Shown here: positions 5,086-27,587 of the stretch, piece after piece
How positions within the stretch are numbered: the first letter of the stretch is position 1
Layout of the letters: each line of letters opens with the position of its first letter
Assembly (NCBI GenBank): GCA_003248755.1
Contig: QFQW01000006.1
Span: 4,993 to 68,992, forward strand
Length of the DNA: 64,000 nucleotides
Reading direction: 5' to 3'
Source of the DNA: Chryseobacterium sp.
GTDB lineage: Bacteria; Bacteroidota; Bacteroidia; Flavobacteriales; Weeksellaceae
Made by a program: the position numbers and the translations under genes
Notes under the pieces: generated by a model
What the model saw: only the letters and a program-made list of their open reading frames with translations
What the model was told of the DNA's origin: nothing
Databases searched by the model: none

Positions 5086-5140
5086 AGTTTAGTTTGTAAT
5101 GGATTAGACTTCCAAAAACTTAATTTGTTACATTAATAAA

Positions 5141-7264: not shown

Positions 7265-7328
7265 ACTATTATTGACAATTGATTCGCAGAATTTGTTACA
7301 TTATGTTAATTAGACTTATCAAATGAAG

Positions 7329-9431
7329 TTAGTTCGCTCTGTCTTTTTCTTCGAAATTAATCTGCTTTTTGTTGATTTGTTTTTTCTTATTTCCGAAAGT
7401 ATAATTCACGCTCAAACGAAAACTTCTTCCATCCCAATAATTATTGAAATGCTGACTGTTATCTCTGAAATACATATCTCCACGGAATCTCTGAGCAAAA
7501 ATATTCGTCACCGTTGCATTGATTTGAAGTTGCTTTTCCATTAGAGAAACCTTGATTCCGGAATTCAGATTGGAAAAATTATGGAAATAAGAATTCACAT
7601 TTTTATAAGGTAAACTTTGGTCATAGTTTAGGAATAGAGAAACCGTTTTTGATTTATTTAAAATAAATGTATTGTTGATAGAATAGCTTACCGAAGTTCC
7701 TTTGGATGTTTCCGCACTGATATTGAAAACTTCTGAGTTTTGATAAGATGCGTTTGCAGAAATAGTCGCTTCCCAGAATTTGAAAAAAGTATCTGTGTAA
7801 GAAACATTAGCTCCATAAAAATTATTGTTATAGTAGTTCTGATAATCTCCATTTTGAGAAATACCATCCAAGTAACCGATTTGCCCAAAAGCATTAGTCA
7901 ATCTAAGATAATAAACGCTTGTCGAAAGCTTGTTGTTATATGTATAACCCAATTCATAATTATTAATGTAAGAAGGCGTCAACAAAGGGTTTCCTGATGA
8001 ATAAGAATATGGATTTTCATACCAGCAGAACGGATTCAAATTGCTCATACTTGGTCTGTTGATTCTTCTGGAATAGGACAAGCTGAAAACATTTTTATCC
8101 TCTTTATAAGAAACGTAAACCGAAGGAAACCATTGCGCATAAGAGAAATTATTCACAGAGCTTTTTACAACTGTATTTTCATATCGGATTCCAGCTTTTG
8201 TTTCCCAATGTTCTCCGAAATTTTTAGCAAAACTTCCGTAAACAGCATAATTCTCCTCGCGATAATTGAAAGTACTGCTTTTTTCATTATCAATAATGAA
8301 TTGATTGTTTTCTAAATCAAAGTATTTCAAATCTGCAGAGTTTCTGAATTGATTGAATTTAACACCGGTTTCAATCGTTCCAAATTTAAATGGCAATTCT
8401 AAGTCGCCCTGAACAGAGAAAATCTGAGGTGTAATTTTTGACAACGTTTTCACATCCTGAATTGTATTTTCAGGAAGAGTCAAAGTCGAGAAATTAACTT
8501 CGGTTTCGTTATTATTTTTGTAAAAATTACCGGCGAAACTCAATTTCTTTCCAAGTGAATCCAACTTCAAATCATAATAAGTACTGAAAGTATGAGTCGG
8601 TGATTTTTCCCTGTGAAAAGTATTGGTCAAAAGATTTTTTTCTGTCAAATCAGGACTGATGTTTCTCGTTGTGTTAAAGATATCCATTCCTGATTTTTCG
8701 TGTCCGAAAATATATTCCATTCCAACTTCTGAGTTTTTATTGATTTTGTAAGAAGCGTTCAAACTCGGTGTCAAATCCTGCCACATATCTTTTCGTGTAG
8801 ACTCACTATAATTCTGTGATTCTCCAAGTATAGTATATCTTTCATTAGAGCGTTTTGCACCATCAATGTAGCTGGTTTTTAAACTTAAACTAAGCTTTTC
8901 GGTTTGGTAATTAAGTGTTCCGTTGGTTGTTCCATTGAAGTAAGTTCTCTGTGTAATGCCAGTGCTGATATTGCCACTAAAACCAAGATTCGGATTTTTT
9001 TTCAGAATAATATTGATGAGCCCGCTGTTTCCTTGCGCTTCATATTTCGAAGGCGGTGTGGTAATCACTTCGATTTTTGAGATGTTTTCTGAACGAATCG
9101 ATTTCAGATAATTCAAAAGAGCAGCTCCTGAGAGATTCAGCATTTTTCCGTTAATCATCACATTTACGCTACTTTTTCCTGTGATAGAAATCGTTCCGAG
9201 ATTCTCATCCACTTTCAACATTGGAACATTGGCAAGAGTTTCGCCGGCATCCATTCCCTGAGATGCGATAGACGCATCTACATTGAAGACCAATCTGTCA
9301 GCTTTTCTCTCCAATAATTTTTTCTTCACAAGAATATTAACCTGTTCGATTTCTTTAAGGCTGTCTTTCTGAGTCTGAGCAAAAGTTGCAGTTGAAAGTA
9401 AGCTGGCGATAAATAGATATTTTAGTTTCAT
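7329..9431 (-). CDS. TonB-dependent-receptor-like outer-membrane beta-barrel protein, paralog 3 (tandem copy of paralog 2)
   Basis: Collinear with 5141-7264 (NISKIEVITTPPSKYEAQGNSGLINIILKKN; same C-terminal FGNKKKQINKKQINFEEKDRAN-type tail). Start moved to the internal ATG at 9431 (MKLKYLFIASLL...), which gives a normal signal peptide. Confidence 0.7.
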   Translation of the reverse strand: MKLKYLFIASLLSTATFAQTQKDSLKEIEQVNILVKKKLLERKADRLVFNVDASIASQGMDAGETLANVPMLKVDENLGTISITGKSSVNVMINGKMLNLSGAALLNYLKSIRSENISKIEVITTPPSKYEAQGNSGLINIILKKNPNLGFSGNISTGITQRTYFNGTTNGTLNYQTEKLSLSLKTSYIDGAKRSNERYTILGESQNYSESTRKDMWQDLTPSLNASYKINKNSEVGMEYIFGHEKSGMDIFNTTRNISPDLTEKNLLTNTFHREKSPTHTFSTYYDLKLDSLGKKLSFAGNFYKNNNETEVNFSTLTLPENTIQDVKTLSKITPQIFSVQGDLELPFKFGTIETGVKFNQFRNSADLKYFDLENNQFIIDNEKSSTFNYREENYAVYGSFAKNFGEHWETKAGIRYENTVVKSSVNNFSYAQWFPSVYVSYKEDKNVFSLSYSRRINRPSMSNLNPFCWYENPYSYSSGNPLLTPSYINNYELGYTYNNKLSTSVYYLRLTNAFGQIGYLDGISQNGDYQNYYNNNFYGANVSYTDTFFKFWEATISANASYQNSEVFNISAETSKGTSVSYSINNTFILNKSKTVSLFLNYDQSLPYKNVNSYFHNFSNLNSGIKVSLMEKQLQINATVTNIFAQRFRGDMYFRDNSQHFNNYWDGRSFRLSVNYTFGNKKKQINKKQINFEEKDRAN

Positions 9432-9608
9432 AAGTTTTATTTTAATCGTTGTAAAATCTTGATGCAAATGTATTTTCAGGACTTCCCTAATGAAATAGCG
9501 TTTAGATTTGATAAGGTTTTAATTCGACCAAACTATTTTCATCGATGAAAAAAGGGTGTTCATAGAATTTGGCGGTTCAGATGTTTTCACTGTCCGTATT
9601 TTTGGAAT

Positions 9609-14768: not shown

Positions 14769-15344
14769 ATGGAGTCGCTATCTTTACAGCAAATGTCCGA
14801 AAAAAAATCTGCATCGATTACGGAAGTCGTGAAAAATTACGGCTCTCAGCTTTTGCGCTTTATTAATTCTAAAGTGGCAAAGACGGAAGATGCAGAAGAT
14901 ATTCTTCAGGAAGTTTGGTTTCAAACCAGCAGATTGACCAATCTGGATGAACTGGAAAATGTCGGAGCCTGGTTATATTCGGTCACCAGAAACAAGATCA
15001 TCGATAGTTATCGGAAAAAGAAAACTGAATCACTGGAAGATTTTGTCTATCAGGACGAAGACGGCGAACTGAATGTGAAGGATATTCTTTTGGCTGATGA
15101 TACCAATAATCCGGAAATCGGTGTGTTCAAAGAAATGTTTTGGAATGAGTTAATGAAAGCTCTGGATGAATTACCGGAAAAACAAAAGCGTGTTTACATA
15201 CAAAACGAACTTGAGGATAAAACTCTGCAAGAAATTGCGGATGAAGAGGGCGAAAACATAAAAACAATAATCAGTAGAAAATCTTATGCTGTAAAACATT
15301 TGCGAAAAAAATTGCAGATACTTTACAACGATTTAAATGATTAA
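14769..15344 (+). CDS. ECF-type RNA polymerase sigma-70 factor
   Basis: Region 2 (DAEDILQEVWFQ..., WLYSVTRNKIIDSYRKK) and region 4 HTH (LPEKQKRVYIQNELEDKTLQEIADEEGENIKTIISRKSYAVKHLR). Confidence 0.8.
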   Translation: MESLSLQQMSEKKSASITEVVKNYGSQLLRFINSKVAKTEDAEDILQEVWFQTSRLTNLDELENVGAWLYSVTRNKIIDSYRKKKTESLEDFVYQDEDGELNVKDILLADDTNNPEIGVFKEMFWNELMKALDELPEKQKRVYIQNELEDKTLQEIADEEGENIKTIISRKSYAVKHLRKKLQILYNDLND

Positions 15345-15355
15345 TTATTAAAAAA

Positions 15356-15745
15356 ATGAAAAGAAATAGAAAGAAATTTTGGATGATTTTTCCTTGCGTG
15401 ATAGGTGCAGTGGGATTATTTATTTGGTTTTTCCAATGGCTTTGGAATATTCTATTACCCGATATTTTGGGAGTGAAAGCAATTAATTATTGGCAATCGG
15501 CTGGAATCTTATTGTTATCGAAAATCTTGTTTGGAGGTTTCAATGGTGCTAAAGAAAAGTTTAAAAGACGAAATGATTTTAATATTGGAATAGGAGATAG
15601 AAGAGAACATTGGAGGCAGAAATTTGAAACTCAATTTTGTGGAAGCGAAGAAGAACGTGAGAAGTTTAAGGAAATGTGGAAGCAAAGATTCGAATCTAAA
15701 TTCTGCAGACCAGAAGAATCTCGGCCAGAAGAAAATAAAATATAA
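15356..15745 (+). CDS. Small membrane protein, possible cognate anti-sigma factor
   Basis: Two predicted TM helices followed by a charged tail with a duplicated (K/R)FExxFCxxEE motif. Lies 11 nt after the ECF sigma gene. Confidence 0.45.
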   Translation: MKRNRKKFWMIFPCVIGAVGLFIWFFQWLWNILLPDILGVKAINYWQSAGILLLSKILFGGFNGAKEKFKRRNDFNIGIGDRREHWRQKFETQFCGSEEEREKFKEMWKQRFESKFCRPEESRPEENKI

Positions 15746-15776
15746 AAAAGTCTCACAAATTTGTGAGACTTTTTTA
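15744..15776. terminator. Bidirectional intrinsic terminator (end of the ECF pair and of the ABC-exporter operon)
   Basis: Perfect palindrome aaaaaagtctcacaa-a-ttgtgagactttttt. Confidence 0.75.
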
Positions 15777-15780
15777 TATT

Positions 15781-17997
15781 TTAACCGCCTAATTCTAATT
15801 GATTCTTTACAAGCTCAAAGTAGCTCCCTTTCATTTTTGTTAATTCTTGATGACTCCCAATTTCTACAATTTTACCATTATCCAGCACTACAATTTTATC
15901 CGCATTTTTAACCGTTGAAAGTCGATGAGCAATAATAATTACTGTTTTCTCTTTGAAAAAAAACTGCAAATTGTCATGAATGATTTTTTCATTTTCTGAA
16001 TCAAGAGCAGATGTAGCTTCATCGAAGAATAAAAATTGCGGATTTTTGTAAACTGCTCTCGCGATAAGAATTCTTTGTTTCTGCCCTCCTGATATGCCAT
16101 TACCGTCTGCTCCAATTTGAGTACTTAATTTAAGAGGAAGTGTACTTATAAAATCATTTAAATTAGCAATCTCTATCGCATAATTTAATTTTTGAAAATT
16201 AATATCTTCTTCACCAACGGCAATGTTTTTTGCAATTGTATCATTAAAAATAAAACCGTCTTGCATTACTGCGCCTATGTTTTTTCTCCATTCTCCCGAA
16301 TGTATATCCATAAAATTGGTTTTTCCTAAAGATATATTTCCCAAATCTGGTTCATAGAATTTTAGAAGTAATTTCATAAGGCTCGTTTTACCACTTCCGC
16401 TTGTTCCTACTATTGCCGTAATTTTATTTTTTGGAATAGTTAAAGAGATATTATCTAAAACTCTCATGTCGTTTCCAAAATAAGAAAACGATATTTCTTT
16501 AAGGTAGATATCTTCGGATTTGACTGCCGGTTCATTCTCTATATTTTTTCTCTCATCTTCGTTTTCTTTTTCGTAAATCTCATTTAGCCTTTCCAAGCTT
16601 ATTTTTGCATCTTGAGAACTTCTGATAAAATCAACTAGTTGGGAAAGCGGAATATTAAGCTGTCCAACAATAAATTGTATAGACAACATCTCTCCTAGTG
16701 TAATTTTATTATTTATAACTAGACTAGCGGAAATAAAAGTGATTAAAATATCTTTCAAATGGTTTAAAAAACTAGATCCTATGTTCTGCCATAGTTCTAC
16801 GTTTTGTAATTTTATTTGAATACGATATATTTTATTTTGAATTTTTTCCCAATCTGTTGTTTTCTGAGATTCAGCTCTGTTCAATTTGATTTCCTGCATT
16901 CCGGAAATAATTTCCATCGTCTTTGACCTTTCTTCTGCTTGTTGTTCAAACCTCATGTAATCTAGAATTTTTCTTTTCTTTGAAAAAAATAATAGCCACA
17001 AAGTGTATAGAATACTTCCAATAAAAAAGATTACAAACACCTGATAATTGTAATACAGCAAAATACTTCCAAACACAATGAAATGAATGAAGGAAAAAAA
17101 GGTATTTAGAGAACTTCCGGTAAGATAGGATTGCACTCTGTAATTATCATTCATCCTCTGTATCAAGTCTCCGGTAATTCTGGAATCGAAGAACGAAATA
17201 GGAAGTCTCATCATTTTTTTTAAAAAGTCAGAAACCAATACAATATTGATTCTATTGCTTAAATGAAGTAAAATTCTTGACCTGATTGCCTCAACGATAA
17301 TTTGTCCTAAAAACAATGCTAATTGAGCAAAAAGAATTGTGTAGATAAAATTTATATTTTTAGGTTTAATACCTTTATCCACAATGTTTTTTGTGAAAAA
17401 TGGAAAGAAAAAAGATATAATATTTTCTATCAGTAGAGCTAAAATAAGATATAGAAGTAGTGTTTTTTGCTTCTTTAGATATTTTATGAAACGAGAATAT
17501 GGATTCGTTTTTTTACAATTAAATCTTTGTTTCCCAAAATCGGAATTGGGTTCTAATAAAAGAATAATACCTTCTTCTGTATTTCCATTTGCAGTTTCAT
17601 TAATCCAATTTTTAATAAAATCACTATGACTATATTTTACTTTTCCCATCGCAGGGTCAGCCACATAGACTCTGTTTGGGTCGATTTTATATAATACCAC
17701 ATAATGGTAGTTTTTCCAAAAAACAATACTTGGCAGAGGTGCCTCCAATAAAGTTTCAAAACTAATTTTTGTTCCAAATGCATCAAACCCAATACTTTCT
17801 GCTGCTTTGGAAATATTATAAAGACTGCTTCCTTCACGGCTAGTTTTAGAAAGATTACGCAAATCCTGAATAGAAAGATGCTTTTTGTAATAAGCACTGA
17901 TGATTTTTAAACAAGTGGGGCCACAGTCTTTTCCATCAAATTGTTTGTAAAAAGGAAAGGGTCTAAGTCTATTTTTTATTCTTGAAATTAATTTCAT
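15781..17997 (-). CDS. Peptidase C39 domain-containing ABC transporter (double-glycine leader-cleaving bacteriocin/RiPP exporter)
   Basis: N-terminal C39 domain with an intact triad context (QFDGKDCGPTC; NYHYVVLY; VADPA). Six-TM ABC membrane domain. Walker A GTSGSGKTS, signature ISGGQKQR, Walker B LFFDEATSALD, H-loop IIIAHRL. Confidence 0.9.
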   Translation of the reverse strand: MKLISRIKNRLRPFPFYKQFDGKDCGPTCLKIISAYYKKHLSIQDLRNLSKTSREGSSLYNISKAAESIGFDAFGTKISFETLLEAPLPSIVFWKNYHYVVLYKIDPNRVYVADPAMGKVKYSHSDFIKNWINETANGNTEEGIILLLEPNSDFGKQRFNCKKTNPYSRFIKYLKKQKTLLLYLILALLIENIISFFFPFFTKNIVDKGIKPKNINFIYTILFAQLALFLGQIIVEAIRSRILLHLSNRINIVLVSDFLKKMMRLPISFFDSRITGDLIQRMNDNYRVQSYLTGSSLNTFFSFIHFIVFGSILLYYNYQVFVIFFIGSILYTLWLLFFSKKRKILDYMRFEQQAEERSKTMEIISGMQEIKLNRAESQKTTDWEKIQNKIYRIQIKLQNVELWQNIGSSFLNHLKDILITFISASLVINNKITLGEMLSIQFIVGQLNIPLSQLVDFIRSSQDAKISLERLNEIYEKENEDERKNIENEPAVKSEDIYLKEISFSYFGNDMRVLDNISLTIPKNKITAIVGTSGSGKTSLMKLLLKFYEPDLGNISLGKTNFMDIHSGEWRKNIGAVMQDGFIFNDTIAKNIAVGEEDINFQKLNYAIEIANLNDFISTLPLKLSTQIGADGNGISGGQKQRILIARAVYKNPQFLFFDEATSALDSENEKIIHDNLQFFFKEKTVIIIAHRLSTVKNADKIVVLDNGKIVEIGSHQELTKMKGSYFELVKNQLELGG

Positions 17998-18856
17998 CTA
18001 ATTCTTTTTGAACATCTTGGATATATATATCATCAAAAACCACTTGGTAATTATCATTATTTTTTATTCCATTTTTTATTAAATCGAATGCCTGATTGAT
18101 ATTGTCTCGATAATCATTAAAACGATTCATTTTTTTAAGAAGGAGTGCTTTGTAGTAATAGTTATCTGCTATTTTTGTAATACTATTTGCGAGATCGTAG
18201 TGTTTTAAAGCTTCCTCATTTTTTCCTAATTTATCCAGACATCTGGCTTTATATAATGCTACTTGGTATGGGAAAAAATTGTTCTCTCGGGTTGCTTCGT
18301 AAGTTTCTTTTATATTACGGTCAAACTCTTGTATCGCTTTTTCATATTGTTTGAGTTGCATATAATTAATCCCTTTCAAATAATGAAAATTATCGCCATT
18401 GGCTACCAAATTTGGCTGATGCTGCATGTGAGTTTCATATAGCTCTAATTTTTCTAAAGATTTTTTATAATCATGGTAAAAAAACAAAAGAACCCAGCCA
18501 TAATAGGCATTTGTAGCTGGATCTATTTTTGAGGCTTCATCCAATTTTTCAATCGCTTGAACCCAATAGCCATTTTTAGTATTTTGTACGGAAGAATGTC
18601 TTATCATCTCAGGTTTTATATTCTTGATATTATGAATTCCGTATTGCATCATTTCTTCGCCAATATCATCCATTCCGAAATAGCTTGACCAATATCCAAT
18701 TTCAAATATCTTTTCAGGAGATTTAATATCGATTGTGTCATTATATTTTTTGGAAATTTGGGCTAATCTATCAACTGCTTTTGGGGAAAGTTTCTGAGCA
18801 TTTGATAGAATATAAATTCCCAAAAAGAATAATACCGTTGCAATTTTTTTTATCAT
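17969..18856 (-). CDS. Secreted/periplasmic TPR-repeat protein
   Basis: Signal peptide (MIKKIATVLFFLGIYILSNAQ). TPR-like helical repeats (YLKGINYMQLKQYEKAIQEFDRNI; ALYKARCLDKLGKNEEALKHYDLA; YYKALLLKKMNRFNDY). The 3' end overlaps the ABC gene start by 29 nt. Confidence 0.6.
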   Translation of the reverse strand: MIKKIATVLFFLGIYILSNAQKLSPKAVDRLAQISKKYNDTIDIKSPEKIFEIGYWSSYFGMDDIGEEMMQYGIHNIKNIKPEMIRHSSVQNTKNGYWVQAIEKLDEASKIDPATNAYYGWVLLFFYHDYKKSLEKLELYETHMQHQPNLVANGDNFHYLKGINYMQLKQYEKAIQEFDRNIKETYEATRENNFFPYQVALYKARCLDKLGKNEEALKHYDLANSITKIADNYYYKALLLKKMNRFNDYRDNINQAFDLIKNGIKNNDNYQVVFDDIYIQDVQKELDEINFKNKK

Positions 18857-18866
18857 TTAATTGATT

Positions 18867-19325
18867 TTATTTGGGTAGAATGTCAGTAATCTCGCCATTT
18901 TGTATTTTAAAAATATAATACTGGTGAAAGTTTTGTATTGCTTGATTTTCTGCAATAGGTTTCCATATTTTCAAAGATTTCACAAGATTCAAAATGTCTT
19001 GTTTTATTTTATCATTTAGTTCACAGTATTTATAATCAAACCCGAAACTTTCGAGAGAGTAATTTCCGGTTTCTCCTTTACAATTGACCCAGAAAGTAAT
19101 ATGCAAGATTCCGGTATTATTTTCTAAATGAGAATAGTCTTCTGCGTGATATTTTGCCTTAAAAATTGATTTTACCGCATAAAAATCTGGAACATAATTT
19201 CCTGAATTTTGCAGATAATAATATGGATATACTTTTTTATCCCCACATAACTGTAGATCTTGGCTTTGTTGACCAAAACTTTTTAAGCTAATTAAAAAGA
19301 ACAAGAAAATTATACTTCTAAACAT
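18867..19325 (-). CDS. Secreted hypothetical protein (152 aa)
   Basis: Signal peptide MFRSIIFLFFLISLKSFGQ. The central GILHITFWVNCKGETGNYSLE block is vaguely TonB-C/beta-sandwich-like. Overlaps the upstream gene by 16 nt and lies 10 nt from the next gene. Confidence 0.5.
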   Translation of the reverse strand: MFRSIIFLFFLISLKSFGQQSQDLQLCGDKKVYPYYYLQNSGNYVPDFYAVKSIFKAKYHAEDYSHLENNTGILHITFWVNCKGETGNYSLESFGFDYKYCELNDKIKQDILNLVKSLKIWKPIAENQAIQNFHQYYIFKIQNGEITDILPK

Positions 19326-20497
19326 TGTGGATTATTTTTCAGAAAAGTAGAAAAATTAAAATTATAAGTTTGATTTTCCATGTTAAAATTTTCTACAATT
19401 GGATAGTATTTGTTATATATTTCAATCCACTTGTCTTTTATTTTGTAAAATATTTCCAATCCAATCTCTGTGAAAATATCTTTTGATCTGTTATTTACAA
19501 ATGAAATATCTCTAGGAATTCTATTAAAAAGCTCTGATACAGGAATAGACGTATAAAACAATTGTAGATCATAATGACATCTTTGAATATAAAGCAATAT
19601 TCTTCCAAGGGCCTCTAATCTTTGTATTTCAGAAAAATCATTGTTTTCCAAAGATGCGTCTAAACATATAAAACTTGCATAATATGTATATAAAGCATGA
19701 AACCAAATCTCAACGCTCCTGTTTTGTTCAGTTTTATATGGCATAGCCAAACTCTGTATTGTTGTATTCTCATCATCTATCAGGAAAAAAAGTTTTTTAT
19801 CAAAAAGCATCGTATACATTAAGACATGACCAGTCTGATGCGCTATGTCATCTACAAAAAAAACTTCGTCATAATTTTCTTGATAAGCATTATAAAAAGA
19901 AATCCCAAGAGCTTTTTTATATGCAAAAGAATTTGTGTTGTATGGTAAAGTATCAAAGACAATGCATTTTGGACAATATTTATCTATCAATACAAAATAT
20001 TCAGGCAGATTTTTTTTGATTAATTGATAAGCTCTTGTTAAATGATGTATATTTTCTTTACTGATTTTGGAAATTTCATACTCATATTCACCAAAACATT
20101 GATCCAGTAATTTGTCTTTGTAAACTAATAGTTCAATATTAGTATCTTCTATAATTGTAGGGTGCTCCGTAATTGTTTCAATATCATTACGCCGGTTATA
20201 TTTGTGGTTGTCTATCCATCCAATGTTTCTGATATATGTTTTTTCAAAATTACTCGTGACTATTTTCTTATTGCCAGTCCAATCTGCATACAGAATAGTT
20301 TCTATCAAATCTGGATCTTTTGTAATATTATCATTGTTGCTAAAATACAGGTTGATAAAAGGATTTGAATAAATAGATTCATCCTCAAAATCTATATGAT
20401 CAAAAATATCTTCATTATTTTTATATAATAGCATTTTTATATTGTCATTCCATTCTTGACGTCCTTGTTCTAATAAAGGAAGAATTGTTGGTAACAT
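19310..20497 (-). CDS. Orphan 395-aa cytoplasmic protein with an H-x3-H motif; candidate peptide-modifying enzyme
   Basis: No signal peptide. DDIAHQTGHVLMY (H220/H224, nt 19826-19840) plus WFHALY (H267). It is the first gene after the precursor peptide. Confidence 0.5.
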   Translation of the reverse strand: MLPTILPLLEQGRQEWNDNIKMLLYKNNEDIFDHIDFEDESIYSNPFINLYFSNNDNITKDPDLIETILYADWTGNKKIVTSNFEKTYIRNIGWIDNHKYNRRNDIETITEHPTIIEDTNIELLVYKDKLLDQCFGEYEYEISKISKENIHHLTRAYQLIKKNLPEYFVLIDKYCPKCIVFDTLPYNTNSFAYKKALGISFYNAYQENYDEVFFVDDIAHQTGHVLMYTMLFDKKLFFLIDDENTTIQSLAMPYKTEQNRSVEIWFHALYTYYASFICLDASLENNDFSEIQRLEALGRILLYIQRCHYDLQLFYTSIPVSELFNRIPRDISFVNNRSKDIFTEIGLEIFYKIKDKWIEIYNKYYPIVENFNMENQTYNFNFSTFLKNNPQCLEV

Positions 20498-20520
20498 TTA
20501 TTATTTGTGTTTTTAGTTTA

Positions 20521-20553
20521 TAAAAAGAGAGAGAGAAATAATCCTCTCTCTCA
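20521..20553 (-). terminator. Intrinsic terminator / attenuator between the precursor peptide and the downstream genes
   Basis: The minus strand reads gagagagag-gattattt-ctctctctc-ttttta. It begins 8 nt after the peptide stop and ends about 24 nt before the next ATG. Confidence 0.6.
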
Positions 20554-20559
20554 AAATTA

Positions 20560-20706
20560 TTATAGTGAAGTAGATGCGCTACAAGAATTATCACCAGGAT
20601 GACAATCTTGAGCTGGAGTTTTTCCTCCTACAACTTGCGTTAATAATGTAGTTACTTCTGTAACGTTCGCTTTCTTTTTGAAAGATTCTAAATTTAATTT
20701 TTTCAT
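20560..20706 (-). CDS. 48-aa double-glycine-leader precursor peptide (bacteriocin/RiPP-like)
   Basis: MKKLNLESFKKKANVTEVTTLLTQVVGG | KTPAQDCHPGDNSCSASTSL. The MKKLxLE start and the hydrophobic -4/-7 positions before GG fit C39 substrates. Lies in the same operon as the C39 ABC exporter. Start set at the internal ATG 20706. Confidence 0.65.
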   Translation of the reverse strand: MKKLNLESFKKKANVTEVTTLLTQVVGGKTPAQDCHPGDNSCSASTSL

Positions 20707-20827
20707 TTTGATAATTTTAAATATTTTGCCTACTCTTTTATGATGCTTTTCGGCGTTCGCATTTTTTGATTGCAATCGTATATAAAAACCTAAAATATTT
20801 GCAACTATTTTTTGGTTTTGACATTCC

Positions 20828-22984
20828 TTATAATGAATTATTTCCTTCTTCGACTCTTCCTTTATCAGATTCCTGTTTGTTGGTTTCTTTACTTTTTTTG
20901 TTGCCGAAAGATTTTGATATAGATAAGGTTATACTTCTTATGTCTCTTCTGTTATTTCTATAAATCTCTCCGATATTAGAGTAATTTACAGTTTTCCAAG
21001 TCAAAAAATTAAAAGGATCTGTTGTTTCTAATCTAATTTTAACCCCTTGTTTATCAAAATTTCTTGATAAACTGAATGTAAATCTATTTGAGGCTTCTGT
21101 CAATTTATAATTAACTAAAGAAAAATTATTGTAAAAAGAAAAATATGCCTCAGAATTAATACCAGTATTCAGGATGTTTTTATAATAAACTTTCAAATCA
21201 AAATTACTAAACGTTGAGTTTGGAACATTCAAATCATTTTTTCTATTAATCTCAGAATTGTCATTAAAAGTAAATGAAGGATTAAAATTCACACTTAATT
21301 TATCCTTAATTATTGATTTATTTATGTTTAGACCTACAAAAAACTGGTAATTATTCCCTCTGTAATTTATTGTTTGGATTACTAGTTGATTATTTTGATA
21401 ATAGTATGAGGATCTCATCACATCATTATTTATCTTGTATGCAAGTGTCAGATTATAATTTTTTCTAAAAGAATAATTTAATCTATAGATTTCTTGTTTA
21501 TAAACCCCTAGGCTTGGGTTTCCTTTATGAATGTAATTATCATTAATGTAATAAATGAAAGGGTTTATTTCGTTTGCATAAGGTCTTATAATTGATTTTT
21601 TATAACTTAAGGCAATTGTGTTTTTGTCATTTGCTTTGTATGATACTATTATGGTAGGGAGCCAATTGTTGTAATCCATTTTATTCACTTCATCAGTTAA
21701 TATTTGAATGCCGTCGATATTTGTAAATTCACTCCTTAATCCAGCTTTAATAGTTAGTTTTTTAAAATATGTTTTGCTAATTGTTGTGTAAATTCCCAAT
21801 ATATTTTCTTTATACTTAAAAATATTGGTCAAATTACTATTTGGAATATATTCCATACCATTCCAAGAATTAACATAATAAGGGCTATGTTGACTTAAAA
21901 AATTATTTTTAAATCCTGTTTCTATAGAGTATCCAGAGTTTCCTAATGATTGAGAATAATCAACCTTAAGAGAATAATTTCTTCTTTCTTCATTAATAGA
22001 ATTATTGTAAGCATTTATAAGTGTGTTGTCATAGGAATTATAATTACCATCTCCATTACTTTTTCTATATACCCAGTCTAAATTAATTTCTAAATTTCGA
22101 TTAGATTTTTTGCCTTGAAATTTGTAAAAAAGATTATTAGAAAATAACACGTTTTTATAATTATCATCTTGATTCGTAAAATATTCGTGGGAATTATCTG
22201 AATAGTTTTTACTGAATAAAAAAGTTTTAGGATTTGAATAATTCAATTCTAAAATCCCGCCAATACTATTTTCAGGATTAATCTCATATTCAAAAGAATT
22301 ATTAATACCTATATAATATTCTTCAGTTTTTCTATCTGTATCAATGTATTGTTCCTCAAGAGCATTATAAATCTTATTAATATTATATTCGTAGGATTTT
22401 CTTCTATCAACCCCGATGTCAAAAGTTGAACTTTGGCTATATCTACTACGATGATAATTAAGATATGCCATAATCTCTTGACTATTTTTCCTTGTCTGTT
22501 TATCTGTAAATGAAATACTACCTTTCCAGCCGTCATCTTCCATTTTCTTCAAAATCAAATCAATCACGGCGCCATCATTTGCATCATATTTTGAAGAAGG
22601 CGTTGTGATAATTTCTATTTTTATCAGATTATCTGCCGGCATAGATTTCAGGTAGCCATACAAATCTTTGCCAAGTAATATAGATTTCCTGCCATTAATA
22701 TAAACTACAGCTGTTTGAAATCCCATTACACTTATACCATTGTCGTCATCTACCATCAATAATGGTGTCTGCTGAAGTACATTCCAAGCATTATTACCAA
22801 TAACCAAACCCGTATTTTCTACATTAAAAACGAACCTGTCAGATTTAGTCTCCAAAACCGGTTTCTTACCAGTAATGACTACTTCTTGGATTTGTTTTTC
22901 CGCAATTATTTTCAAAGAGTCATGCTTTTGGGCAAAAGCATTCCCAATGATAAAAATGAATACTAGATATTTAATCTTTTTCAT
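20828..22984 (-). CDS. TonB-dependent-receptor-like outer-membrane beta-barrel protein, paralog 4
   Basis: Signal peptide and plug block NLIKIEIITTPSSKYDANDGAVIDLILKK. Same architecture and basic C-terminal tail as 5141-7264 and 7329-9431, but with a much more Asn/Ile/Tyr-rich (AT-rich) composition. Confidence 0.7.
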   Translation of the reverse strand: MKKIKYLVFIFIIGNAFAQKHDSLKIIAEKQIQEVVITGKKPVLETKSDRFVFNVENTGLVIGNNAWNVLQQTPLLMVDDDNGISVMGFQTAVVYINGRKSILLGKDLYGYLKSMPADNLIKIEIITTPSSKYDANDGAVIDLILKKMEDDGWKGSISFTDKQTRKNSQEIMAYLNYHRSRYSQSSTFDIGVDRRKSYEYNINKIYNALEEQYIDTDRKTEEYYIGINNSFEYEINPENSIGGILELNYSNPKTFLFSKNYSDNSHEYFTNQDDNYKNVLFSNNLFYKFQGKKSNRNLEINLDWVYRKSNGDGNYNSYDNTLINAYNNSINEERRNYSLKVDYSQSLGNSGYSIETGFKNNFLSQHSPYYVNSWNGMEYIPNSNLTNIFKYKENILGIYTTISKTYFKKLTIKAGLRSEFTNIDGIQILTDEVNKMDYNNWLPTIIVSYKANDKNTIALSYKKSIIRPYANEINPFIYYINDNYIHKGNPSLGVYKQEIYRLNYSFRKNYNLTLAYKINNDVMRSSYYYQNNQLVIQTINYRGNNYQFFVGLNINKSIIKDKLSVNFNPSFTFNDNSEINRKNDLNVPNSTFSNFDLKVYYKNILNTGINSEAYFSFYNNFSLVNYKLTEASNRFTFSLSRNFDKQGVKIRLETTDPFNFLTWKTVNYSNIGEIYRNNRRDIRSITLSISKSFGNKKSKETNKQESDKGRVEEGNNSL

Positions 22985-23078
22985 TCTTTATTTGAATGGG
23001 TTTTTAATTTTATGAATCGAGAATTGGGTAGAATAATTACTAAAGTTTCTAGCAATTATTTATTAGGATTTGAAACCG

Positions 23079-23285
23079 TTATTTTCTTGGAGGAGACTTG
23101 GGATCGTCTTCTAATATAGACTGAGGTATTTCTGAATTTGGCTGTATAGTATCCGAAATAATAGATTTACGATCTTTAGAAGTAGGGTAATAATTTGATT
23201 GAATTTCTTCAGAGCTGAAACTTTCGTTTCTACATCCTATTAGAATTAGAAATAATAGTAATAAAATTACTTTTGATATTTTCAT
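23079..23285 (-). CDS. Small lipoprotein (68 aa)
   Basis: MKISKVILLLLFLILIGC lipobox followed by a Ser/Pro/Asp-rich mature part. Lies directly downstream of a good TAnnTTTG promoter match. Confidence 0.45.
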   Translation of the reverse strand: MKISKVILLLLFLILIGCRNESFSSEEIQSNYYPTSKDRKSIISDTIQPNSEIPQSILEDDPKSPPRK

Positions 23286-23301
23286 CGGTTTGTATTTTTG
23301 C

Positions 23302-23332
23302 CAAAACTATATAAGTAATAAGTTCAATCCAA
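23302..23332 (-). promoter_or_regulatory. Candidate promoter for the minus-strand lipoprotein / OM-receptor / peptide operon
   Basis: On the minus strand: TTG (23332-23330), 20-nt spacer, then TAGTTTTG (23309-23302), a perfect TAnnTTTG match. It lies 17 nt upstream of ATG 23285. No equally good box occurs directly upstream of 22984 or 20706. Confidence 0.35.
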
Positions 23333-23462
23333 ATTATAAATTTTCAAAACAGTTATTAACTTAAAAAAAATAAATACTTGCAAAGAAAATATTGATACAT
23401 ACAAAAAAATTATTTGTAAAAAAATAAATCGACATTTGTAATTAGTTGATTATAAATGCTAA

Positions 23463-23493
23463 TTGGCATTGACTGGAATTTTCCTTAAATTTG
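23463..23493 (+). promoter_or_regulatory. Candidate promoter of the TPR/AraC regulator gene
   Basis: TTG (23463-23465), 20-nt spacer, then TAAATTTG (23486-23493), 17 nt upstream of ATG 23511. Confidence 0.35.
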
Positions 23494-23510
23494 TTTTTCT
23501 AAACACACAA

Positions 23511-25247
23511 ATGAAATATTTCTTATCAATTTTGTTGATTTTTTCAATGTTTTTTAATGGTTTTGCTAATGATAGCCTGCTGATTTCTTATTCAAATATT
23601 CAAAAGGAAATCCAAAAATTGGACAAAGAACCTAAAAAACAATTCAAATGGATTCTCCTACTGATTGAAAAAGCTAAAAAAGAGAATAATTTAGAAAAAC
23701 TTAACCAAGGCTATTCCTTCGCCAGTACTTATACCCGAGGTAATATTCAAATGAAATATGGTGATAGTCTCTTAAGTACTGCTTTACAGATCAATAATCC
23801 AGATATTATTGGAGATTGCTATCTATCAAAGGGTATGATTTATACAAATGAAGAAAAGTATCCTTTGGCATTGGATTATTTTATGAAAGGTTATAATTAT
23901 ATTAAAATTAATAACGACGAATATTTAATTCATAACGCAGAATATCAGATTGCTCAAATAAAAATTTATTTAGGAGAATATCAAGAAGCAAGAAAAATCC
24001 TAAAAAGAACCCTGTCTTTTTTTAGAAAGAATCATACAAAAATCAAGAACACAGATTATGCATTGTATTACATATATTCATTGATAAGTTATATAGATGC
24101 TAATAGTAAGTTAGGGAATTTCTCCGAAAATGTCGCATTGATAAAAGAGGGTTTGCACTTTACCCGCAACACAAATTATAACAGTTATTATTCCTATTTT
24201 GTATCGTTGATAGGTACAGATTTCTATTATCAAAAAAAATATAATTTAGCTATTGAAAAACTTAACTCTGCATTAGAATTAAGCAATGATAACTGGAAGC
24301 ATTTGACAGAGAATTATTATTTGGGGCTGTCCTACTGGTACAAAGGTGACAAAGAATTTGCGTTGCCATATTTAAAAAAATTGGACGCAGAATATAACTC
24401 CAACGGAAAAATAGATCCACAGTTTCGCCCCGCTTTCGAAGCTTTACTAAATTATTATCGTGATAAAGATGATATTAAAAAACAGCTTAATTATATAAAT
24501 AAACTAATAAAATTAGATAAGATCTACGAGAAAGATTATAAGTACTTATATGCAGCTTTAAAAAAAGAATATGATACTGAAAATTTAAAAAAGCAAAAAG
24601 CATTCTTGGAAAAATCGTTAATTAATGAGAAAGATAATAATTTTTTGATAAAATTTATTTTAGTAATCGTTTCAGGAGTCCTTTCTTATATAGTATATTC
24701 CTTATATCAAAGACATAAATATTACAAAATACTTTATCTTCAATTTATAAGTAATGAAAATAAGCAAAACCTTACGGAAGAAGATAAATATATTATTCCC
24801 TATGTTTCGGATAATATTGATATTAAAGTTTCAAATCACATTGCAGAGAATTATGATTCGTTGGATTTGAATCCAAATCTTGTGAAGGATATGCTTTTGT
24901 ATTTGTCGGATTTTGAAGCAAAAAAAGGGTTTCTTGATAAGGACATTACCCTAACTAAAATGGCTTCACAATTTGGTACCAATGTTTCTTACTTATCCAA
25001 AGTTATTAATTTTTACAAACAAGAAAATTTCCTTAGTTATATTAATACACTTAGATTGAATTATACTCTTGAATTATGGCAAAAAGATCCTCTCACTCGA
25101 TACTATAGAATTAGTGAAATTTCTAATATGGTAGGATTTAAAACAGTTCAAAGCTTTGCCAAAAACTTTAGAGAGAAATATAAAATATCTCCCAAATATT
25201 TTTTGACAAATCTTAATGAAAATAAAAAAGTAGATAAAATGAGTTAG
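23511..25247 (+). CDS. Transmembrane one-component regulator: N-terminal signal/anchor, TPR-like sensor region, TM helix, C-terminal AraC-type HTH
   Basis: MKYFLSILLIFSMFFNGFA signal. TPR-like repeats. TM helix FLIKFILVIVSGVLSYIVYSLY (about nt 24643-24708). AraC HTH (LTKMASQFGTNVSYLSKVIN...EISNMVGFKTVQSFAKNFREKYKISP). Confidence 0.75.
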   Translation: MKYFLSILLIFSMFFNGFANDSLLISYSNIQKEIQKLDKEPKKQFKWILLLIEKAKKENNLEKLNQGYSFASTYTRGNIQMKYGDSLLSTALQINNPDIIGDCYLSKGMIYTNEEKYPLALDYFMKGYNYIKINNDEYLIHNAEYQIAQIKIYLGEYQEARKILKRTLSFFRKNHTKIKNTDYALYYIYSLISYIDANSKLGNFSENVALIKEGLHFTRNTNYNSYYSYFVSLIGTDFYYQKKYNLAIEKLNSALELSNDNWKHLTENYYLGLSYWYKGDKEFALPYLKKLDAEYNSNGKIDPQFRPAFEALLNYYRDKDDIKKQLNYINKLIKLDKIYEKDYKYLYAALKKEYDTENLKKQKAFLEKSLINEKDNNFLIKFILVIVSGVLSYIVYSLYQRHKYYKILYLQFISNENKQNLTEEDKYIIPYVSDNIDIKVSNHIAENYDSLDLNPNLVKDMLLYLSDFEAKKGFLDKDITLTKMASQFGTNVSYLSKVINFYKQENFLSYINTLRLNYTLELWQKDPLTRYYRISEISNMVGFKTVQSFAKNFREKYKISPKYFLTNLNENKKVDKMS

Positions 25248-25264
25248 ACTACATATCGATTAAA

Positions 25265-25306
25265 AATAAGTTTTATGAAACTCTATTATGATTCATAAAA
25301 CTTATT
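25265..25306. terminator. Bidirectional hairpin between convergent genes
   Basis: 15-nt perfect inverted repeat aataagttttatgaa / ttcataaaacttatt with a 12-nt loop. Confidence 0.55.
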
Positions 25307-25316
25307 TGTAAAAATT

Positions 25317-27587
25317 TTAACCTTGTTTTTCCATCTTTTTGATGAGGTTAAGGGCCGAACCGGCTTTGAACCATTCGATTTGTCCGGCATTGTAAGTATG
25401 GTTTGCCATAATAATATCTTTAGTTCCATCAGCGTGAACAAACTCCAAGGTCAATTGTTTACCTGGTGCGAATTGGTCTAAATCTAAGAAGTTAATTGTA
25501 TCATCTTCCTGAATCTTGTCATAATCGTCTTTATTTGCGAATGTGATTCCTAACATTCCTTGTTTTTTAAGATTGGTTTCGTGGATACGCGCAAAAGACT
25601 TAACCAAAACAGCTTTTACACCAAGATGTCTTGGTTCCATCGCAGCGTGTTCTCTGGAAGACCCTTCACCATAATTCTCGTCACCAACTATAATTGTAGG
25701 AATGCCATCAGCTTTATATTGTCTTGCAGAATCCGGAACTGGTTTGTATTTCCCATCTTCTTCATTTTTAACATTGTTGGTTTCCATATTGAAAGCATTC
25801 ACAGCACCAATCAACATATTATTGGAAATATTATCAAGATGTCCTCTGTACTTTAACCAAGGTCCAGCCATAGAAATATGGTCAGTTGTACATTTTCCGT
25901 AAGCTTTGATTAATAATTTAGCTCCTGTAATATTTTTTCCGTCCCAAGCCGGGAACTCTTCTAATAGCTGAAGTCTATCTGATGTTGGAGAAACAATCAC
26001 TTCTACATTAGAACCATCTTCAGCTGGAGCAATATAGCCTGGGTCATCCACATCAAATCCTAATCTAGGAAGGTCGTCTCCGCTTGGTTCATCAAGAAGA
26101 ACTTCGATTCCGTCTTTGTTTTTAAGTTTATCTGTCAATGGATTGAATCTCAAATCCCCTGCAATTGCCAAAGCTGTTACCAATTCCGGCGAACCTACGA
26201 AGGCGTAAGTATTGGGATTTCCGTCTGCTCGTTTTGAAAAGTTTCTGTTAAAAGAATGAACAATCGTGTTTTTCTCTTGTTTTTCAGCACCTTCTCGAGC
26301 CCATTGTCCAATACAGGGACCACAAGCATTAGCAAAAACTTTACCACCGATTTCATCAAAGGTTTTTAAAAAGCCATCTCGCTCAACAGTGAATCTTACT
26401 TGTTCAGAACCTGGGGTAATAGTGTATTCTGCTTTTACTTCCAGATTTTTATCTTTTGCTTGTTTTGCAACGGAGGCAGCTCTTGCAATATCTTCGTAAG
26501 AAGAGTTGGTACAAGAACCGATTAATCCAACTTCTATCTTTGTTGGCCATCCGTTTTTCTCTGCAATTTCTTTCATTTTAGAAATCGGAGTATAAAGGTC
26601 CGGCGTGAAAGGTCCATTCAGTGCAGGCTCTAGCTCATTTAAGTTGATTTCAATAAGCTGGTCATAATATTTTTCCGGTTCTGCATGAACTTCTGGGTCA
26701 GCTTTCAGAACGTGGGCAATTGCATCAGCCGCCTCAGCCAAATCTTCTCTGTCTGTGGAGCGTAGATATTTGCTCATATTTTGGTCGTATTCGAAAATGG
26801 AAGTTGTAGCGCCGATTTCCGCACCCATATTACAAATTGTTCCTTTTCCGGTACAAGAAAGCGAATTGGCACCTTCTCCAAAATATTCTACAATCGCACC
26901 AGTTCCTCCTTTTACAGTAAGAATTCCGGCCACTTTTAGAATAATATCTTTTGGAGCAGTCCAGCCATTCAGTCTTCCTGTTAATTTAACCCCAATCATT
27001 TTTGGGAATTTAAGTTCCCAAGCCATTCCTGCCATTACATCAACCGCATCAGCACCGCCAACTCCGATGGCAACCATTCCTAGCCCTCCTGCATTTACGG
27101 TGTGAGAATCGGTTCCGATCATCATTCCTCCGGGAAAAGCATAATTTTCTAAAACAACCTGGTGAATAATACCGGCTCCGGCTTTCCAAAATCCGATTCC
27201 ATATTTGTTGGAAACTGATTGCAGGAATTGATAAACTTCATTGTTCTTATTTTCAGCCTCAATCAAATCTTTTGCTGCACCAACTCTTGCTTGAATCAAG
27301 TGGTCTGCGTGAACAGTTGATGGAACAGCCACTTTTTTCTTACCAGCCTGCATAAACTGTAAAAGAGCCATTTGCGCCGTCGCATCTTGCATTGCAACTC
27401 TGTCCGGAGCAAAATCTACATAAGATTCTCCTCGTTTGAATGCTTCTTTTGTCTGTGAAGAGAAAAGATGAGCACAAAGAATTTTTTCTGAATAAGTAAG
27501 AGGTCTTCCCATAAAGGCTCTTGCTTCGTTTACTCTGGTTTCGAAATCAGAATAAACTTTTTTTATCATATCCAAGTCAAAAGTCAT
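25317..27587 (-). CDS. Aconitate hydratase (monomeric AcnA/mitochondrial-type, 756 aa)
   Basis: Aconitase family blocks: [19 protein letters not shown], the three Fe-S cluster Cys contexts ([17 protein letters not shown]) and a swivel domain with [10 protein letters not shown]. Confidence 0.9.

Follow-up and report, generated by a model that had tools for sequence, protein, structure and literature searches.

What does a protein with an altered metalloprotease motif do to the short peptide encoded just upstream of it? The question is raised by a locus in a metagenome-assembled genome of Chryseobacterium sp. (GenBank assembly GCA_003248755.1, contig QFQW01000006.1), which was studied within a window, that is, the complete stretch of 64,000 nucleotides (nt) analysed here; all coordinates refer to this window. 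The gene in question lies at positions 19310–20497 of the minus strand and encodes a protein of 395 amino acids (aa) with the motif His-Gln-x-x-His (HQxxH). A preliminary description, made from the sequence alone, had presented it as an orphan protein and a candidate maturase of the adjacent peptide. We think it fairly probable that it is a cytoplasmic metalloenzyme of the Fe(II)/alpha-ketoglutarate (alpha-KG) type, belongs to the aKG-HExxH enzymes and serves as the single maturase of a peptide with a double-glycine (Gly-Gly) leader, which it would oxidize at or next to a Cys-His dipeptide. The evidence for this consists of homology, the fold, the conservation of a His pair and two Arg residues, the operon context and the invariance of Cys-His in the peptides.

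The HQxxH protein and its homologues

The gene and the codons of its predicted active site are located as follows.

19310..20497, minus strand: HQxxH protein, 395 aa; ATG-started open reading frame running from 20497 to 19310; divergent candidate peptide oxygenase of the aKG-HExxH type (zincin-like fold)
19826..19840, minus strand: codons of H220-Q221-T222-G223-H224, the predicted metal-binding motif with Gln replacing Glu; aligned to HExxH of PosC, ChlH and SjiH
19697..19720, minus strand: codons of R260–H267 (RSVEIWFH), the invariant Arg and the downstream His; counterpart of R..(Y/L)FHA in aKG-HExxH enzymes

The translation reads FFVDDIAH220-Q221-T-G-H224VLMY and EIWFH267ALY, with H220 encoded at 19838–19840, Q221 at 19835–19837, H224 at 19826–19828 and H267 at 19697–19699. 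The reading frame and the positions of these residues had been given exactly in the preliminary description. It had also called this gene the first after the peptide and the protein devoid of a signal peptide. Indeed, the gene of a 48-aa peptide is situated 62 nt upstream, and the N-terminus (MLPTILPLLEQGRQEW...) shows no signal-peptide character and forms a conserved helix in the structural model. The deposited protein DI529_02465 is identical to the one studied here.

About 0.2 HxxxH motifs are expected by chance in a 395-aa protein with nine His residues. A single occurrence is thus not significant in itself, and the motif gains its significance from conservation among homologues. These are numerous, and the term orphan has to be abandoned: a word-indexed search yielded 243 homologues, and an exhaustive profile search of 1.84 billion representatives yielded 728 clusters (50% identity) at E ≤ 1e-3 and 591 at E ≤ 1e-10. 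When a single genome of each species was scanned, 60 genome loci were identified, all of them in Bacteroidota. The hosts belong to Flavobacteriales, Sphingobacteriales, Cytophagales, Chitinophagales and Saprospiraceae, with one Paludibacter; Chryseobacterium cupriresistens, Flavobacterium amniphilum and Aquimarina aggregata (L005, L007 and L012) are among those that can be cultivated.

A multiple alignment of 44 family members including the 395-aa protein (further referred to as A1) was constructed. The F-F-x-D-D-I-A-H-Q-x-G-H block, R260, R299 and about 30 further positions are invariant in A1, and H267 is present in at least 90% of the sequences. The HQxxH motif was found in all 57 loci with a detectable motif, in all 120 homologues from the first search and in 132 of the 145 further representatives. 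Hence the residue following the first His is Gln in 309/309 sequences, a count that covers those matched by the regular expression for the motif. The 13 representatives missed by this expression were inspected separately; two of them keep Glu (HEGAH and HEGGH), and a few copies lack one or both His residues. In total, Gln replaces the motif Glu in approximately 98% of the clade, and HQxxH is retained even in members having only 24–27% identity to the 395-aa protein. The preliminary description had allowed for the His residues not being conserved among homologues; H220 and H224 proved essentially invariant, with H267 conserved at about 90%. Wherever a degenerate copy lacking one or both His residues was seen in its genomic context, an intact HQxxH copy adjoined it, which speaks for the His pair being functionally required.

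Seven loci (L017, L031, L033, L037, L039, L042 and L044) encode, 100–900 nt from the intact copy, an additional divergent paralogue of the enzyme in which the His motif is lost (e.g. AKQSGH in L017). Such an arrangement suggests an enzyme/pseudoenzyme pair.

Relationship to the aKG-HExxH oxygenases

The nearest known relatives are the aKG-HExxH peptide beta-hydroxylases (NCBIfam TIGR04267.2, InterPro IPR026337), which include ChlH (PDB 8s5f), SjiH (22ob/22nu), PflC/PosC, BpmH/BipH and PesO. An AlphaFold2 model built on A1 (predicted local distance difference test score, pLDDT, 89.7; predicted template modelling score 0.91) was compared with the PDB by Foldseek. The best matches were the chains of 8s5f, the HExxH domain of ChlH/ChlB (E 3.1e-8 to 7.7e-8, probability 1.00, template modelling score 0.51–0.66, about 375 columns), an entry described as "a novel alpha-ketoglutarate dependent oxygenase". 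The second significant match was SjiH-Ni (22ob, E 4.6e-5), which according to its sequence is a part of a radical S-adenosylmethionine (SAM) fusion protein, and no other PDB target was significant. Zincins, namely botulinum neurotoxin, anthrax lethal factor, thermolysin-like enzymes and M32 carboxypeptidases, appeared in the list only with E from 1 to 8. The protein thus has the zincin-like helical fold of the ChlH type. The preliminary description had considered that a structural comparison might point to an unrelated non-enzymatic family; the only significant matches are the oxygenases ChlH and SjiH.

The sequences of PflC and PosC were taken from the supplement of PMC12636437. Their homologues, which carry the NCBI name "aKG-HExxH-type peptide beta-hydroxylase", were aligned to form the second alignment, A2. 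Comparison of A1 with A2 by hhalign (E 3.6e-5, 175 columns) placed H220, Q221, H224, R260 and H267 opposite H, E, H, R and H, respectively. The paired segments are the following.

DDIAHQTGH of A1: ESLVHEaGH of A2
R260 of A1: the invariant Arg of PWSGQxRD
FHALYTYY of A1: FHAFYIY of A2
C-terminal FT..G of A1: C-terminal FT..G of A2

Opposite R260...F266-H267-A268-L269-Y270 stand R..YFHAFY in PosC and R..LLHAIF in ChlH, and R299 was paired by MAFFT with the invariant R322 of PosC. Therefore the protein has both the R-x(5,6)-(F/L)-H-A-(F/I/L)-(Y/F) segment and the second conserved Arg, the roles of these residues being presumed. The corresponding patterns are IHEHRH...R......LLHAIF in ChlH and IHEFQH...R......LFQGTY in SjiH, the latter with Gln at the position of H267. 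The third His some 40 residues downstream, proposed earlier as a ligand, thus coincides with the conserved His of the aKG-HExxH family. A bridging member of the family, P0244 (HQFGH), was recognized by the A1 profile with E 7.6e-70; it scores 46.1 bits with TIGR04267.2, for which the curated domain cut-off is 40 bits and the PosC-like positive control P0121 reaches 115 bits, and it matches A2 with 95.4% probability and E 1.8e-8.

Several observations weigh against this assignment. The 395-aa protein has no match to TIGR04267 in the NCBIfam search even at E ≤ 1, and only seven of the 44 family members match this model, weakly (best E 0.018); P0079 and P0074 score 15.1 and 12.9 bits with TIGR04267.2, in the correct register. 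Pfam also contains nothing relevant for the 395-aa protein. The Glu of the motif, invariant in the characterised clade (A2), is absent; both His residues are present and aligned with those of aKG-HExxH enzymes, so that the sequence departs from HExxH by this single replacement. About 10% of the representatives have Q, Y, N, G or F in place of H267, which makes the third ligand uncertain. Finally, the probability of the direct A1–A2 match in hhalign is only 71%.

The link between the family and aKG-HExxH enzymes came only from structure comparison and profile–profile methods. NCBIfam and PDB phmmer searches with the 395-aa protein, as well as a search of PDB sequences with the A1 profile, returned nothing relevant, and when A1 was compared by hhalign with PosC alone, the probability was only 7%, so that the family alignment is needed for the link. 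Though the curated model misses the protein, the fold match, the hhalign result and the bridging P0244 support its membership in a divergent part of the aKG-HExxH superfamily. The relation to TIGR04267 suggested in the preliminary description therefore holds at the superfamily level via P0244, which exceeds the cut-off, and not by the model itself applied to the 395-aa protein. CoiH, a sulfoxide-forming enzyme whose paper mentions HExxH, was also considered as a relative and was rejected, as its authors report a different fold without a metal site. No publication on SjiH was found in our literature search.

The HQxxH clade shares with aKG-HExxH enzymes the overall fold, the H-x-x-x-H helix followed 36–43 residues later by R-x(5,6)-hydrophobic-H-A-aromatic, the second invariant Arg and the C-terminal FT..G; it also shares a cytoplasmic enzyme encoded beside a precursor of a ribosomally made peptide with post-translational modifications (RiPP). 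Apart from Gln and the missing TIGR04267 match, the differences are that the clade is stand-alone, is confined to Bacteroidota and is paired with export by a Gly-Gly leader and an ATP-binding cassette (ABC) exporter carrying a C39 peptidase. It was not seen with radical SAM, MNIO or other tailoring enzymes, and an invariant Cys-His, which has no described equivalent among the characterised members, is present in its substrates.

With gluzincin-type HExxH metalloproteases the protein has in common a helix with two His residues one turn apart, a candidate third ligand on the next helix and a faint resemblance of the fold. Unlike zincins, it has no catalytic Glu (Q221 is invariant in A1), its matches to zincin folds are at E ≥ 1, its context is that of a modifying enzyme and a separate leader peptidase is available. 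No match to a peptidase family was obtained in Pfam, NCBIfam and PDB sequence searches. The earlier opinion that the protein is not a hydrolase agrees with all this.

The replacement of Glu by Gln had been taken as the mark of a repurposed metal centre. This interpretation is not supported: ChlH, SjiH, PflC and PosC are oxygenases that retain Glu, and so the repurposing belongs to the whole superfamily. Moreover, a small sister subclade retains HEGxH; its metagenomic loci share the arrangement ABC exporter–HlyD–enzyme–tetratricopeptide repeat (TPR) protein, and one of them encodes a GG-x4-CH precursor ending in ...LTGG-ILGA-CH-KTD.... On this limited evidence, enzymes with Glu and enzymes with Gln seem to share one kind of substrate. 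PflC has a latent peptidase activity when the leader is missing, and this hydrolysis works with Zn, Co or Fe. Position 221 may be a hydrogen-bonding residue of the second coordination sphere, neither a ligand nor an essential base, and Gln would then remove such latent zincin-type activity. Since H267 is replaced in about a tenth of the representatives and SjiH naturally has Gln there, this residue also may not be an obligatory ligand. Comparing a clade with about 98% Gln and a small Glu-retaining sister group that apparently acts on the same kind of substrate amounts to a natural experiment, by which the function of the motif Glu in these oxygenases could be approached directly.

The Cys-His peptides and the proposed reaction

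The peptide gene and its conserved dipeptide have the following positions.

20560..20706, minus strand: precursor peptide gene, 48 aa plus stop codon; Gly-Gly leader; leader MKKLNLESFKKKANVTEVTTLLTQVVGG, core KTPAQDCHPGDNSCSASTSL
20599..20604, minus strand: codons TGT CAT of Cys35-His36, core residues 7–8; invariant dipeptide, presumed modification site

The leader ends with ...TQVVGG and is a typical double-glycine leader; the peptide is 80% and 76% identical to the precursors of the related loci L001 and L002, respectively. A search by the leader pattern, with no requirement on the core, retrieved 70 distinct precursors in 50 of the 60 loci, with up to six copies per locus. All 70 contain Cys-His. 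The dipeptide occupies core residues 5–6 (offset 4 after Gly-Gly) in 55 precursors and lies one to five residues later in the others. Outside this motif Cys and His account for only 1.7% and 2.0% of the core. The residue before Cys is Asp in 32/70 precursors and the residue after His is variable. The tails following Cys-His are 7.6% identical, as compared to 39% for the leaders. Such a pattern, in which two residues keep their place relative to the leader and the rest of the core varies freely, is expected of a leader-guided enzyme acting at this site. The proposal that Asp, Asn and His of the core are hydroxylated is thereby narrowed: Cys and His are the only invariant core residues, and Asp precedes them in fewer than half of the precursors. 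The precursors match no NCBIfam or Pfam family, including leader families. No published description of this precursor family was found, nor was any relevant literature found on HQxxH variants or on HExxH enzymes in RiPPs of Flavobacteria.

Four loci (L030, L032, L036 and L047) carry four to six tandem precursors with near-identical leaders, GG-x4-CH and unrelated core tails, a diversification resembling that of other hypervariable RiPP families. In L035 (6087–6561) and L023 (6075–6248), extra Gly-Gly peptides with a different leader and without Cys-His (for instance, ...IKGGQSSSIIIEDIAGF, in three copies) are encoded beside the Cys-His precursors. These peptides may be unmodified and share the exporter.

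The candidate maturase role finds support in the conserved operon context. The precursor gene directly precedes the enzyme gene, precursors accompany the enzyme in most loci, and an exporter is encoded on the same strand in 44 loci, as expected for a RiPP cluster. Since no second cytoplasmic modifying enzyme is conserved across the 60 loci, the HQxxH protein is the only candidate maturase.

We infer the use of iron and alpha-KG, the residue attacked and the product as follows. The enzyme would bind the conserved leader, and the leader would position the Cys-His region at the metal. H220 and H224, with H267 in most members, would hold Fe(II), and R260 and R299 would bind the carboxylate of alpha-KG; that positively charged residues bind alpha-KG in the aKG-HExxH family is stated in PMC12614342 (citing Morishita 2024). 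An Fe(IV)-oxo species would oxidize a C–H bond at the Cys-His region. The simplest outcome, following the example of ChlH with its His and Asp targets, would be beta-hydroxylation of H36 and/or the preceding D34. The exporter would then cleave after Gly-Gly and export the product. In RiPPs, the residues hydroxylated by known aKG-HExxH enzymes are His, Asp, Gln, Asn, Phe and Pro, and oxidative cleavage of the backbone is also within their reach (PMC12636437, PMC13060819).

The invariant Cys is a further difficulty. Among the substrates of characterised aKG-HExxH enzymes in the literature examined, Cys has no precedent as a target or its neighbour, and for this reason plain beta-hydroxylation may be the wrong chemistry. 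The Cys could anchor the substrate on the metal, could be oxidized or cross-linked to His, or could serve the mature peptide. One can accordingly retain the same family and metal site and centre the chemistry on Cys: its thiolate would bind iron and be oxidized, instead of simple beta-hydroxylation of His or Asp. The product might be a C–S cross-link between Cys and His, a sulfinic acid, a sulfoxide or, following beta-hydroxylation, an aldehyde derived from Cys. We regard such chemistry as possible, though rather improbable. The Cys is as invariant as the His, whereas the preceding Asp is not, and the reactions already known from aKG-HExxH enzymes are diverse: several residues are hydroxylated, the backbone can be cleaved oxidatively, and hydrolysis occurs as well. 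EgtB and OvoA, which are His-ligated non-haem iron enzymes, join cysteine sulfur to an imidazole carbon. On the other hand, in the literature examined no aKG-HExxH member is described as acting on Cys, a cross-link between adjacent residues would probably need a strained 9- or 10-membered ring, and the Cys could assist the mature peptide, by metal binding or a disulfide, instead of the enzyme.

The loss of Glu invites another interpretation, in which the protein is a dead zincin-like pseudoenzyme, that is, a leader-binding chaperone, scaffold or export adaptor, and the peptide is exported unmodified, like class II bacteriocins. Substitution of Glu by Gln is the classic way to inactivate a zincin (the E335Q mutant of botulinum toxin is among the Foldseek matches), and HQxxH pseudoproteases, e.g. 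ACE3 and CLCAs, are known. Some paralogues lack the His residues altogether, and the remainder of the operon is an ordinary export set of Gly-Gly bacteriocins. Yet the 728 clusters retain both His residues, the two Arg and many of the polar positions, down to about 24% identity; the His-less copies occur only beside an intact one; the nearest structures are those of oxygenases, not proteases; and if no reaction took place at this site, an invariant Cys-His within a hypervariable core would be difficult to account for. Hence a pseudoenzyme is unlikely.

We consider it very unlikely that the metal site works with another set of cofactors and without alpha-KG, either as a non-redox Zn(II) centre activating the Cys thiolate or as an Fe/pterin oxidase similar to the HD/ExxH protein PolE. 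PolE (DUF6421) demonstrates that HExxH-like sites may run Fe/pterin chemistry (PMC12614342), hydrolysis by PflC tolerates different metals, and the loss of the carboxylate at position 221 alters the second coordination sphere. However, R260 and R299 have aligned counterparts in the invariant Arg residues of the alpha-KG-dependent clade, whereas PolE is reported to lack such residues; the protein has no match to Pfam DUF6421 at E ≤ 1; and the loci have no conserved dehydratase, nor anything else that could supply an electrophile for thiol chemistry. PolE, with its HD/ExxH...E motif, resembles the HQxxH family in that a zincin-derived HExxH-like site is re-used for iron oxidation chemistry. It acts on a free amino acid and is reported without basic residues for alpha-KG binding (PMC12614342), whereas the HQxxH family keeps its two invariant Arg. 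A zincin-type leader or processing peptidase, for which one could cite the distant zincin-like fold with its weak matches and the latent activity of PflC, is scarcely credible, given that the general-base Glu is missing in nearly the whole clade and that the operon already encodes a C39 leader peptidase.

Our preferred reading thus remains an aKG-HExxH oxygenase acting at Cys-His. The kind of enzyme is known since 2024; what is new is the Gln-variant clade of Bacteroidota, its pairing with plain Gly-Gly export and the Cys-His precursor family. To our knowledge, the aKG-HExxH enzymes were recognized only in 2024, and each newly characterised member so far has provided a new reaction or a new target residue. 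The branch described here, of about 700 clusters and phylogenetically confined, is mostly missed by current curated models. The substrate site is precise, one residue pair just after Gly-Gly, in a precursor family absent from the searched libraries and literature. Because all the precursors found carry the invariant Cys-His, the operon points to an uncharacterised peptide natural product. A system of one enzyme and one short peptide is simple to reconstitute; new peptide chemistry might come to light in this way, together with a so far undescribed family of peptides secreted by Flavobacteriia, Sphingobacteriia and Cytophagia. As a tentative and somewhat doubtful extension, the loci may form a new RiPP class of Bacteroidota in which a Gln-variant aKG-HExxH iron enzyme performs chemistry new to the superfamily on Cys-His, such as an oxidative C–S cross-link or a sulfur-centred oxidation. 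If so, the peptides, though hypervariable elsewhere, would share a conserved unit at the N-terminus that serves as a warhead or binds metal.

The operon and its surroundings

In the window, the genes follow on one strand in the order precursor, hairpin with T-run, enzyme, 152-aa protein, TPR protein, C39-ABC exporter and terminator. The elements other than the precursor and the enzyme, together with the gene immediately upstream, are listed below.

20828..22984, minus strand: outer-membrane beta-barrel protein OMP_b-brl_3, 718 aa; immediately upstream; Pfam E 7.6e-54; possible non-core member
20527..20552, minus strand: G/A-rich stem-loop followed by a T-run, between the precursor and enzyme genes; terminator- or attenuator-like; −18 kcal/mol, z = −5.1 (terminator scan, RNA fold)
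18867..19325, minus strand: 152-aa secreted accessory protein; start overlaps the enzyme gene end by 16 nt; signal-peptide-like N-terminus
17969..18856, minus strand: TPR protein, 295 aa; N-terminal signal peptide or membrane anchor; Pfam TPR_2 and related
15781..17997, minus strand: ABC exporter, 738 aa, with N-terminal C39 peptidase; overlaps the TPR gene by 29 nt
15737..15782, minus strand: operon terminator at the ABC gene end, a long hairpin followed by a T-run (terminator scan)

The exporter contains the Peptidase_C39 (E 1.6e-33), ABC_membrane and ABC_tran domains and matches NCBIfam TIGR01193 and TIGR03796. The combination of a Gly-Gly leader and an ABC exporter with an N-terminal C39 peptidase corresponds to double-glycine-leader export. 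Hairpins comparable to that at 20527–20552 follow the last precursor gene in 23 of the 27 loci checked, this being a raw count without a control.

For counting of neighbours, the open reading frames of the 60 loci located on the same strand as the enzyme were clustered. The recurrent neighbours are as follows.

C39-ABC exporter: 44/60 loci
TPR protein: 42/60 loci, nearly level with the exporter
HlyD-type protein: 35/60 loci
CPBP-type membrane protein, between precursor and enzyme: 20/60 loci
152-aa protein: 19/60 loci

A Gly-Gly leader, a C39-ABC exporter, HlyD and a CPBP immunity-like protein are features of class II bacteriocin-type loci. The loci studied here differ from these in having a conserved metalloenzyme with a conserved Cys-His site, a Gram-negative host from Bacteroidota and secreted TPR and TonB-C-like proteins. 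Given the conserved metalloenzyme and the Cys-His site, their product is probably modified.

The gene of the 152-aa protein is, judging by its overlap with the enzyme gene, translationally coupled to the latter. Pfam and PDB sequence searches identified no family for this protein. Its structural model is poor (pLDDT 53, shallow alignment) and matches the folds of TonB, HasB and TolA C-terminal domains with E of 0.05–1; one homologue has a weak match to Pfam TonB_C. Judging by the model, the protein possibly has a TonB/TolA C-terminal-like domain, and together with the upstream beta-barrel protein it could point to an outer-membrane transport step. The OMP_b-brl_3 gene is located upstream of the precursor in five loci, those of the closest relatives and a few others. 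Three tandem genes at 2938–9467 of the window (minus strand) encode proteins of 707–715 aa paralogous to this beta-barrel protein, with 24–49% identity.

The G+C content is 26–30% across positions 16001–26000, compared to 34–40% in the flanks. Given this drop, the peptide locus may have been acquired horizontally. The gene adjoining the locus at 23463–25247 (plus strand) has a 594-aa product that combines TPR repeats and a membrane segment with an AraC-type region at the C-terminus. Nine related loci, including L005, L006, L008, L012, L030, L038 and L045, have a homologue of this protein beside them, which makes it a candidate regulator. In 13 other loci, a small gene of the XRE type is repeatedly present on the opposite strand. 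On the other side, at 14769–15745 (plus strand), the gene of an ECF-type sigma factor (191 aa) precedes that of a membrane protein of 129 aa. Both run towards the end of the ABC gene and have in common with it the predicted bidirectional terminator hairpin at 15737–15782. In the Cytophagales loci L050–L053, L055 and L057–L060, the enzyme is followed by a secreted protein of about 488 aa with an HHHPDH (metallo-beta-lactamase-like) motif. It occupies the position of the 152-aa and TPR proteins, and L053 and L058 carry the latter pair elsewhere in the locus.

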